Source of the DNA: a virus
Lineage: Duplodnaviria; Heunggongvirae; Uroviricota; Caudoviricetes
Virus record (IMG/VR): IMGVR_UViG_3300045988_152359
DNA length: 28,308 bases
Reading direction: 5' to 3' (one strand)
Shown here: piece by piece, positions 23,943-24,891 of the stretch
How positions within the stretch are numbered: position 1 is the stretch's first letter
Layout: each line of letters starts with the position of its first letter
Program-made: the position numbers and the translations under genes
The notes under the pieces: model-generated
Database searches by the model: none
The model's input: the letters and a program-made list of their open reading frames with translations, nothing else
Told to the model about the DNA's origin: nothing

Positions 23943-24716
23943 TCAAAAATTAGGTGAGTAACGGACCGGGGACATAGCTCCTTTTTTTCTTAATTCATCT
24001 GGTATTTTTTTTCCAAGATAAAGATTTGCTATTTCAGGTGGGGCTTCTCGACCTTCAAAACCATAGCGAGAACTTTGTGTTGCCTCAAAGTCCGGATCCT
24101 CGTCCCAGTATTTCATCGTAGGGAAATTTTCACGTGTTGATTTGAGCCATTTATCAGCAATGAAAACCCCTCGAACGATCCCCCTTACAGTAGCAAGAAT
24201 GACTTCTGCTTGGCTGGCGCGAGAGACATTAATGCGCCAGCTAAATCGAACCGCATCATAAAGCTCTGAATCCTTTGCACTTCTGTTAACGGAAATCATT
24301 AATGCTTTATGATGAAATGTTATGGTTTCGGGTTGATATGTTGCTATCAACTCTTTGACATGCGCGGCGCCGAATTCATTGCTGCCAGCACCATTCATGA
24401 TATTCGTTAACCCAGGGTAGGCATCAATAAGTGCTGCTTCAACTTCGTACGCCGTCTTTTCATCAGTCATTCCGTGTCGATGGATGACATGGATAACCTC
24501 AAGTCCTGCTAACCTTATTTCTCTAATTTGCTTTAGCTTGTTGCTCAGTAACTCGTCATCATCAGTCGCTGCCACTTCACCGCGCATATGGGCAAATACG
24601 CGGTTACCTTTGCCTTTCCCTACATAGAAGGTGCTTCCGTCCCTCGGATCAATCAATCGGTATACATACCAGCCAAGGTGTTCAATTACTCCAGAAGGAA
24701 ACTCAGTAATATCCAT
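23943..24716 (-). CDS. Hypothetical protein with N-terminal GIY-YIG nuclease domain and an unassigned C-terminal domain (prophage cargo)
   Basis: 257 aa from ATG 24716 (the ORF track uses a TTG at 24767). N-terminus [29 protein letters not shown]... [11 protein letters not shown]... LTNIMNG matches the GIY / YIG / Arg / Glu / Asn pattern of GIY-YIG nucleases. C-terminal about 160 aa has no motif I recognise. Convergent with pin; last gene before the tRNA-Ser att remnant. Confidence 0.7.
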
Positions 24717-24891
24717 TTTGCAATATCTATGAATTATTTGTGAGACGTATATTAATGAACATTGCAAGGGCTCACAAGCAGTAGTGTTGAGAAAACCATC
24801 GGGGAAATGAGGCTAAGCCTTTGAATTTACAAGTACAAAAAAGATACTTTTCCTCATAATGTGAATTAATTTTATGTTTCGTTTGATGATT

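Follow-up and report, generated by a model that had tools for sequence, protein, structure and literature searches.

A prophage gene behind pin almost certainly encodes PD-T4-3 (CMoRE), a single-protein GIY-YIG restriction enzyme against T-even phage DNA

The DNA analysed here, called the window throughout, is the whole 28,308-nucleotide (nt) stretch of the Caudoviricetes record IMGVR_UViG_3300045988_152359 and represents the late region of a prophage. It starts with a porin, a lysozyme and an Rz lysis protein, continues with an HNH endonuclease beside the small terminase subunit and with HK97-type head genes, and then runs through a Mu-type contractile tail with its baseplate, YmfQ and an invertible tail-fibre segment to pin. 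Behind pin lies a gene that almost certainly encodes PD-T4-3, renamed CMoRE, and that is expected to share the mechanism by which a near-identical protein restricts T-even DNA. This end of the prophage holds the following features:

23331-23885, plus strand: pin, a pinE-type serine DNA invertase (Pfam Resolvase, 8.9e-52, plus HTH_7), convergent with the CMoRE gene
23885-23923, not assigned to one strand: stem-loop between pin and the CMoRE gene, found by RNA folding on both strands
23943-24716, minus strand: coding sequence of PD-T4-3/CMoRE, 257 amino acids plus stop, 774 nt; RefSeq protein WP_000355484.1
24717-24891, minus strand: upstream non-coding region of 175 bp, from the ATG to the tRNA remnant, the presumed site of the native promoter
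24892-24957, plus strand: 3' remnant of a tRNA-Ser(CGA) of the serU type, 66 nt, from the anticodon arm to CCA; 64 of the 66 positions agree with K-12 serU

A first, sequence-only reading had placed the gene at 23943-24767. An open reading frame of this extent does exist on the minus strand and counts 274 amino acids from a TTG, but this start is probably wrong. The likely true start is the ATG at 24716, giving 257 amino acids, because identical genome copies (100% nucleotide identity) carry the RefSeq annotation of exactly the 774-nt coding sequence, in a family alignment of 39 sequences this methionine is also the first residue of homologues from other genera, and the 257-residue form yields the published residue numbers Y17/Y19/Y31/R80/V92/L96/Y127. 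The TTG at 24767 was rejected; its 17-residue extension has no counterpart in any homologue and is absent from the annotation. The gene has a GC content of 43.8% and the prophage one of 52.9%, a difference in keeping with an acquired moron.

The protein had been taken for an uncharacterized one. However, the system is contained in PADLOC and DefenseFinder and is represented by four PDB entries. PADLOC, proposed earlier as a check of the locus, gives a full-length match to its PD-T4-3 model (PDLC04031), with residues 1-256 on model positions 1-255 of 256 (E 2.4e-140, 464 bits), and phrog_5356 is matched at 2e-143. In the PDB, the protein is identical to CMoRE from Escherichia coli O157:H7 (9U75/9U8D) at 253 of 257 positions (98.4%) and to CMoRE from APEC O1 (9U7U/9U7Z) at 219 of 257 (85%); Foldseek labels the PDB matches '5hmC specific restriction endonuclease ... 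PD-T4-3', where 5hmC stands for 5-hydroxymethylcytosine. The four substitutions between the window and O157:H7 are T51A, E55D, Q169K and N197H. They affect no residue tested in the published work, and from the sequence we would expect them to have no functional effect. Asn197 (codon 24126-24128, minus strand) is invariant in 39 diverse homologues, while the crystallised O157:H7 protein has a histidine at this position. The family is already known and mechanistically characterised and the window protein is not a variant of it; for discovery, it offers little that is new.

Within the protein, four segments can be distinguished:

24387-24716, minus strand: N-terminal GIY-YIG domain, defined by a PF22945 match to residues 28-110 and by the invariant residues
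24552-24563, minus strand: acidic run D52-D53-D54-E55, inside a loop inserted between alpha2 and alpha3
24369-24407, minus strand: flexible interdomain linker, residues 104-116, the sole segment with a predicted local distance difference test score (pLDDT) below 50 in the AlphaFold2 model
23946-24368, minus strand: C-terminal modification-sensing domain, residues 117-257, including Y127

All catalytic motifs that had been quoted for the N-terminal part are present, namely Y17-V-Y19-R-L, Y31-V-G-K-G, N38-R39-V-F-A-H43, Y90-E-V-E93-AALIDAY and T104-N105-IMNG, and Y17, Y19, Y31, G33, G35, R39, H43, E93 and N105 are invariant in the 39 homologues (53-85% identity). The match of residues 28-110 to Pfam PF22945 (LEM-3_GIY-YIG; 2.1e-14, 54.2 bits with a cut-off of 27) is far beyond chance. 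The generic GIY-YIG model PF01541 stayed below its threshold (13.9 versus 22.6 bits), and an NCBIfam search of the protein returned no matching family. The three-tyrosine 'GIYxY-YIG' motif (Y17, Y19, Y31) is accompanied by the Arg and the Glu, and the alignment assigns R39 and E93 as the putative catalytic pair. Judged from the alignment, the D52-E55 run would be the published autoinhibitory 'safety catch' over the active site; DDDE is shared with the APEC O1 enzyme, and the O157:H7 equivalent is DDDD. The linker is described as lacking electron density in both CMoRE crystal structures (PMC12923530). The C-terminal part is recognisable as the modification-sensing domain by the published fold and the Y127 contact, and its residues Y153, R157, W160, W190, N197, F198, R217, Y233 and Y253 are invariant. 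The oligomerisation residues V92 and L96 are present as well, so that all functional residues named in the published work (Y17, Y19, Y31, R80, V92, L96 and Y127) are retained.

PD-T4-3 was discovered in 2022, when E. coli fosmid libraries were put through a functional selection against T4 (Vassallo et al., PMC9519451), and the mechanism and structure of CMoRE followed in 2026 (Liu et al., PMC12923530). According to the latter study, which dealt with the O157:H7 and APEC O1 proteins, O157:H7 CMoRE expressed from its native promoter gives about 5 logs of protection against T2, T4 and T6, and the defence is direct, without abortive infection. In vitro the enzyme was shown to cleave DNA containing 5hmC or glucosylated 5hmC (5ghmC) in a Mg2+- or Mn2+-dependent manner, and not DNA with unmodified cytosine or 5-methylcytosine (5mC); T4(C) escapes and T4(hmC) is restricted. 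The site is loose and symmetric (CN11/N9G), two modified cytosines are required and 2-nt 3' overhangs are left. The GIY-YIG domain at the N-terminus carries an additional tyrosine (GIYxY-YIG), active-site mutants (named are Y17, Y19 and Y31) are impaired in defence and no longer cleave, and a 15-residue acidic loop covers the active site. A 4A mutant of this loop (DDDD to AAAA) cuts unmodified DNA and is toxic. A tetramer is needed for defence, oligomerisation mutants are inactive in defence, and 5hm-dCTP is held by the C-terminal domain via the main chain of Y127 (all PMC12923530). In the clinical isolate NILS69, deletion of the chromosomal copy resulted in sensitivity to LF73_P1 and LF73_P3, and the plasmid-borne gene in K-12 restricts four Tevenvirinae phages (10.1101/2024.12.20.629700). 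A Capnocytophaga homologue with 48% identity is modification-dependent too and additionally cuts Mu DNA (PMC12366544). The idea that the gene specifies a single-protein anti-phage nuclease with target recognition in its C-terminal part, first put forward from the sequence, is thus borne out by the literature on the 98.4%-identical CMoRE.

The same reading had named a homing endonuclease as the alternative. A free-standing GIY-YIG enzyme of the I-TevI/Seg-like kind would promote its own spread by cleaving a cognate phage gene at a specific site, and two annotations point in this direction: the GIY-YIG part weakly matches the 'homing endonuclease' family phrog_314 (E 0.0021), and full-length homologues in jumbo phages were labelled 'putative homing nuclease' by their depositors. 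However, for the C-terminal 140 residues Pfam gave no family and thus no homing-endonuclease DNA-binding module, and by fold, in a Foldseek comparison of a domain-only model, this part appears to resemble modified-base readers and not the DNA-binding domains of I-TevI. Moreover, the gene occupies a variable accessory slot at the prophage end and does not lie inside or beside a conserved target gene, and near-identical proteins break down T4 DNA genome-wide, depending on its modification and requiring no more than the loose CN11/N9G site. Because of the nature of the C-terminal domain, the location in an accessory slot and the published genome-wide, modification-dependent cleavage, we reject homing, to which we assign next to no probability. 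The jumbo phages concerned are lytic phages of Serratia, Pseudomonas, Klebsiella, Pectobacterium and Pantoea, whose homologues show 38-45% identity (for example Serratia phage Moabite, 6406-7161, and Pseudomonas phage OBP, 158703-159449). These proteins might act against co-infecting phages with modified DNA.

With the gene read as CMoRE, a mechanism can be proposed for the window allele, derived from the 98.4%-identical protein. The protein would tetramerise as a dimer of dimers, and paired C-terminal domains would read two modified cytosines (5-hydroxymethyl- or glucosyl-hydroxymethyl-cytosine) at a spacing of about 21 bp (CN11/N9G). Between these two bases, the N-terminal GIY-YIG domains would then cleave with Mg2+ or Mn2+ and leave 2-nt 3' overhangs. 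The acidic loop D52-E55 over the active site may exclude unmodified host DNA unless tight binding by the sensor outcompetes the loop, so that incoming T-even phage DNA would be degraded directly while the host survives. Both the lysogen and the resident prophage would benefit.

Several points weigh against transferring this picture to the window. The activity of allele WP_000355484.1 would be carried over from near-identical proteins, and two of the four differences from the crystallised O157:H7 protein fall in the regulatory loop. The published recognition mode is derived from a mononucleotide complex and not from DNA, and the APEC O1 allele is described as weak from its native promoter (PMC12923530). 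A scan for promoters gave none on the minus strand ahead of the gene, and neither a sigma-70 consensus promoter nor a Shine-Dalgarno sequence is recognisable upstream of the ATG; expression in the window's strain would have to be deduced from the conservation of the upstream region. Within the sequence itself we found no counter-evidence.

The lack of promoter and ribosome-binding consensus and the poor defence by the APEC O1 allele would also suit a silent or decayed copy, that is, an intact-looking reading frame that is unexpressed or inactive in the lysogen and confers no phenotype, as would the finding that one of the phages tested with NILS69 was restricted only with the gene plasmid-borne in K-12. 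In contrast, the reading frame is intact and of full length with every conserved residue kept, and hundreds of genomes retain a protein of the same sequence. Upstream of the gene, the DNA hardly differs from that of an O157:H7 genome, the O157:H7 gene is reported to be active from its native promoter, and the native chromosomal copy in NILS69 is active. We therefore consider a silent copy very unlikely and continue to regard the gene as most probably coding for a functional CMoRE.

The pin gene shares 91.6% nucleotide identity with pinE of e14 and is annotated as pinE in identical contexts. It is the last conserved gene of the prophage, and the cargo slot opens at its stop codon. The stem-loop behind it folds with -23.6 kcal/mol (z -4.4) on the plus strand and -19.8 kcal/mol (z -3.4) on the minus strand, has U-rich tracts behind its stem on either strand, and is probably a bidirectional terminator; a strict terminator scan did not call this hairpin. 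Over 23863-23923 (plus strand) there is a sub-threshold Rfam match of the hairpin to the ends of CssrB, a Shigella chromosomal small RNA (32 bits, gathering threshold 76). Only the terminal stem-loop of CssrB matches, and the CssrB terminator may have been derived from an equivalent hairpin downstream of pin. At gathering thresholds, Rfam found nothing in the whole window. Permissive Rfam searches near the gene gave the partial CssrB match on the hairpin as well as tRNA-Sec and a plastid untranslated region on the tRNA remnant; none of them is a real family member.

Between pin and the remnant there is no further open reading frame of at least 40 amino acids, except for short ones inside or overlapping the CMoRE gene. 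CMoRE is a single gene, and its neighbours vary among genomes while the gene persists. The open reading frame list and the serU alignment agree with the earlier description of a partnerless gene that is convergent with pin and the last one before a tRNA-Ser attachment (att) remnant. The two differences between remnant and serU change TT to GG in the T-loop, and the 66 nt match annotated E. coli tRNA-Ser genes at 97%. ARAGORN reported no intact tRNA, and the remnant was established by the serU alignment; it is the duplicated half of the prophage att site.

Further side observations concern the rest of the prophage and its surroundings. A full-length Gram-negative porin (95-1177, minus strand; Porin_1, E 3e-153) lies just upstream of the lysis cassette and looks like a phage-borne Lc/NmpC-like porin. 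Two 20-nt inverted repeats (21325-21344 and 23250-23269), 95% complementary and 1905 nt apart, enclose opposed sets of tail-fibre and tail-fibre-assembly genes and are likely the Pin crossover sites of an invertible host-range segment. The prophage adjoins an AraC regulator, an insertion sequence (IS) fragment and the pao/yagU region and not the K-12 serU locus. Beyond the att remnant (25532-28308), the AraC-family regulator occupies 25532-26284 and is followed by a 75-residue IS integrase-core fragment (26326-26553, minus strand) and by about 1.7 kb without a reading frame of more than 64 amino acids; this stretch is unlike the otherwise closest genome (STEC719).

The slot had been called equivalent to that of mcrA, and the comparison with e14 agrees. 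In K-12, e14 has the order ymfQ, stfP, tfaP, tfaE, stfE, pinE, mcrA, icdC att remnant, and homology between e14 and the window stops at 23886, one base past the stop codon of pin, where e14 carries mcrA. The intervals that were compared behind pinE are:

window: 23886-24891
locus L004: 15242-16413
locus L005: 4056-6100
locus L006: 4056-7592

This slot contains CMoRE in the window and McrA in K-12 e14. In strain MEI2B-1023 it holds Septu (PtuA/PtuB) together with an FRG-domain protein, and in strain 3359 an OLD/AriA-like ATP-dependent nuclease. The position behind pin in e14/SfV-type prophages may therefore be a general exchange slot for defence genes. A literature search for a pin-adjacent defence hotspot found no description of one and returned PinQ/PinR papers or irrelevant 'pine' matches.

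The CMoRE gene was found in 838 of 5426 complete E. coli genomes (about 15%), and 569 of these 838 show the uninterrupted order of the window, from pin through the gene to the tRNA remnant. Nucleotide identity to the gene is at least 99% in 364 records. The protein cluster comprises 1045 member sequences, and more than 6500 protein clusters from many phyla are homologous over the full length. In E. coli EC98 (L007, 3355-4580), CMoRE and the remnant follow lambdoid tail genes (gpJ and a tail-fibre assembly fragment) and not pin, and homology to the window sets in precisely where pin has its stop codon. Movement, or persistence, of the module of CMoRE and remnant is therefore not tied to the type of prophage. 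In NT1F10 (L001, 20775-23900), homology breaks inside the tRNA-Ser remnant, about 18 nt into the anticodon arm. The island beyond the break contains a cytosine methyltransferase, a type II restriction enzyme and ABC-three-component genes, and the arrangement suggests tandem use of one att core.

The fold of the sensor domain is less easily placed. Sequence-profile searches with the C-terminal domain against the PDB and Pfam, at E values up to 10, returned CMoRE itself and noise only. In Foldseek, the full-length AlphaFold2 model reached a template modelling (TM) score of no more than about 0.5 with the crystal structures, as its two domains are oriented differently in the prediction; the domain-only model removed this problem. 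Foldseek on the C-terminal domain had been suggested at the outset, and in it the domain appeared to resemble modified-base readers and not the I-TevI DNA-binding domains. The full-length search showed the same enrichment of modified-base readers, weakly. The fold is called distinct by the authors of the CMoRE study (PMC12923530), and fusions of EVE and GIY-YIG domains were earlier predicted to be type IV enzymes (PMC7641849). On the basis of the models, a PUA-like relationship of the sensor domain is plausible but unproven. We tentatively put forward a joint reading, which we hold to be possible but somewhat short of an even chance, in which the sensor is a highly diverged PUA-like reader of the EVE/YTH/ASCH type that flips bases on duplex DNA, and in which the position behind pin is a general defence slot. 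On a duplex, the modified cytosine might be flipped into a pocket formed by Y153, R157, W160, W190, F198 and R217, which might differ from the edge site seen with free 5hm-dCTP. If this were true, CMoRE would be a cryptic 'reader plus GIY-YIG' member of the PUA-domain type IV enzymes.

Overall, the lysogen represented by the window carries what looks, from its sequence, like an active type IV enzyme against T-even phages with 5hmC or 5ghmC in their DNA. Carriage of CMoRE is relevant to the host range in phage therapy and to prophage-conferred immunity. Our additions to what has been published are modest. They consist of a hint of PUA-like kinship for the 'distinct' sensor fold and of the exchange of unrelated defence genes, two type IV enzymes among them, that we observed at the pin-proximal end of e14-type prophages.

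Among known systems, CMoRE from O157:H7 and APEC O1 has the same type I architecture as the window protein, with a GIY-YIG and a sensor domain in 257 amino acids encoded by a single gene. EcoKMcrA occupies the same position in an e14-type prophage, where it directly follows pinE and precedes the att remnant, and belongs to the same class of single-polypeptide, modification-dependent type IV enzymes with separate sensor and nuclease domains. However, it combines an N-terminal NEco reader with a C-terminal HNH nuclease and targets 5mC and 5hmC, and mcrA is co-directional with pinE whereas the CMoRE gene is convergent with pin. As had been noted from the sequence, the window protein has no HNH motif; Pfam gave no HNH match. 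PADLOC on the window protein gave only PD-T4-3 and a PDB sequence search only CMoRE entries, with no similarity to McrA, while the PADLOC model mREase_IV matches K-12 McrA at 6.5e-203 and not the window protein. One prophage slot can thus hold either CMoRE or McrA, two proteins that are not related but share a functional class, type IV restriction.

The PUA-like type IV enzymes (EVE-HNH, VcaM4I/TspA15I, MspJI, PvuRts1I and the N-terminal domains of McrB) have no sequence-level similarity to CMoRE. Unlike EVE-HNH and the other PUA-like enzymes, CMoRE uses a GIY-YIG nuclease, and its published ligand site lies at the domain edge and not in a base-flipping pocket. The GIY-YIG domains of UvrC and I-TevI have the catalytic fold and the constellation of Tyr, Arg, Glu and Asn in common with CMoRE, and that of UvrC (1YCZ) was the best Foldseek match in the PDB other than CMoRE itself. 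CMoRE differs from both by the extra tyrosine (GIYxY-YIG), the 15-residue acidic insertion and other partner domains, and its biology is defence, whereas UvrC and I-TevI serve repair or homing.
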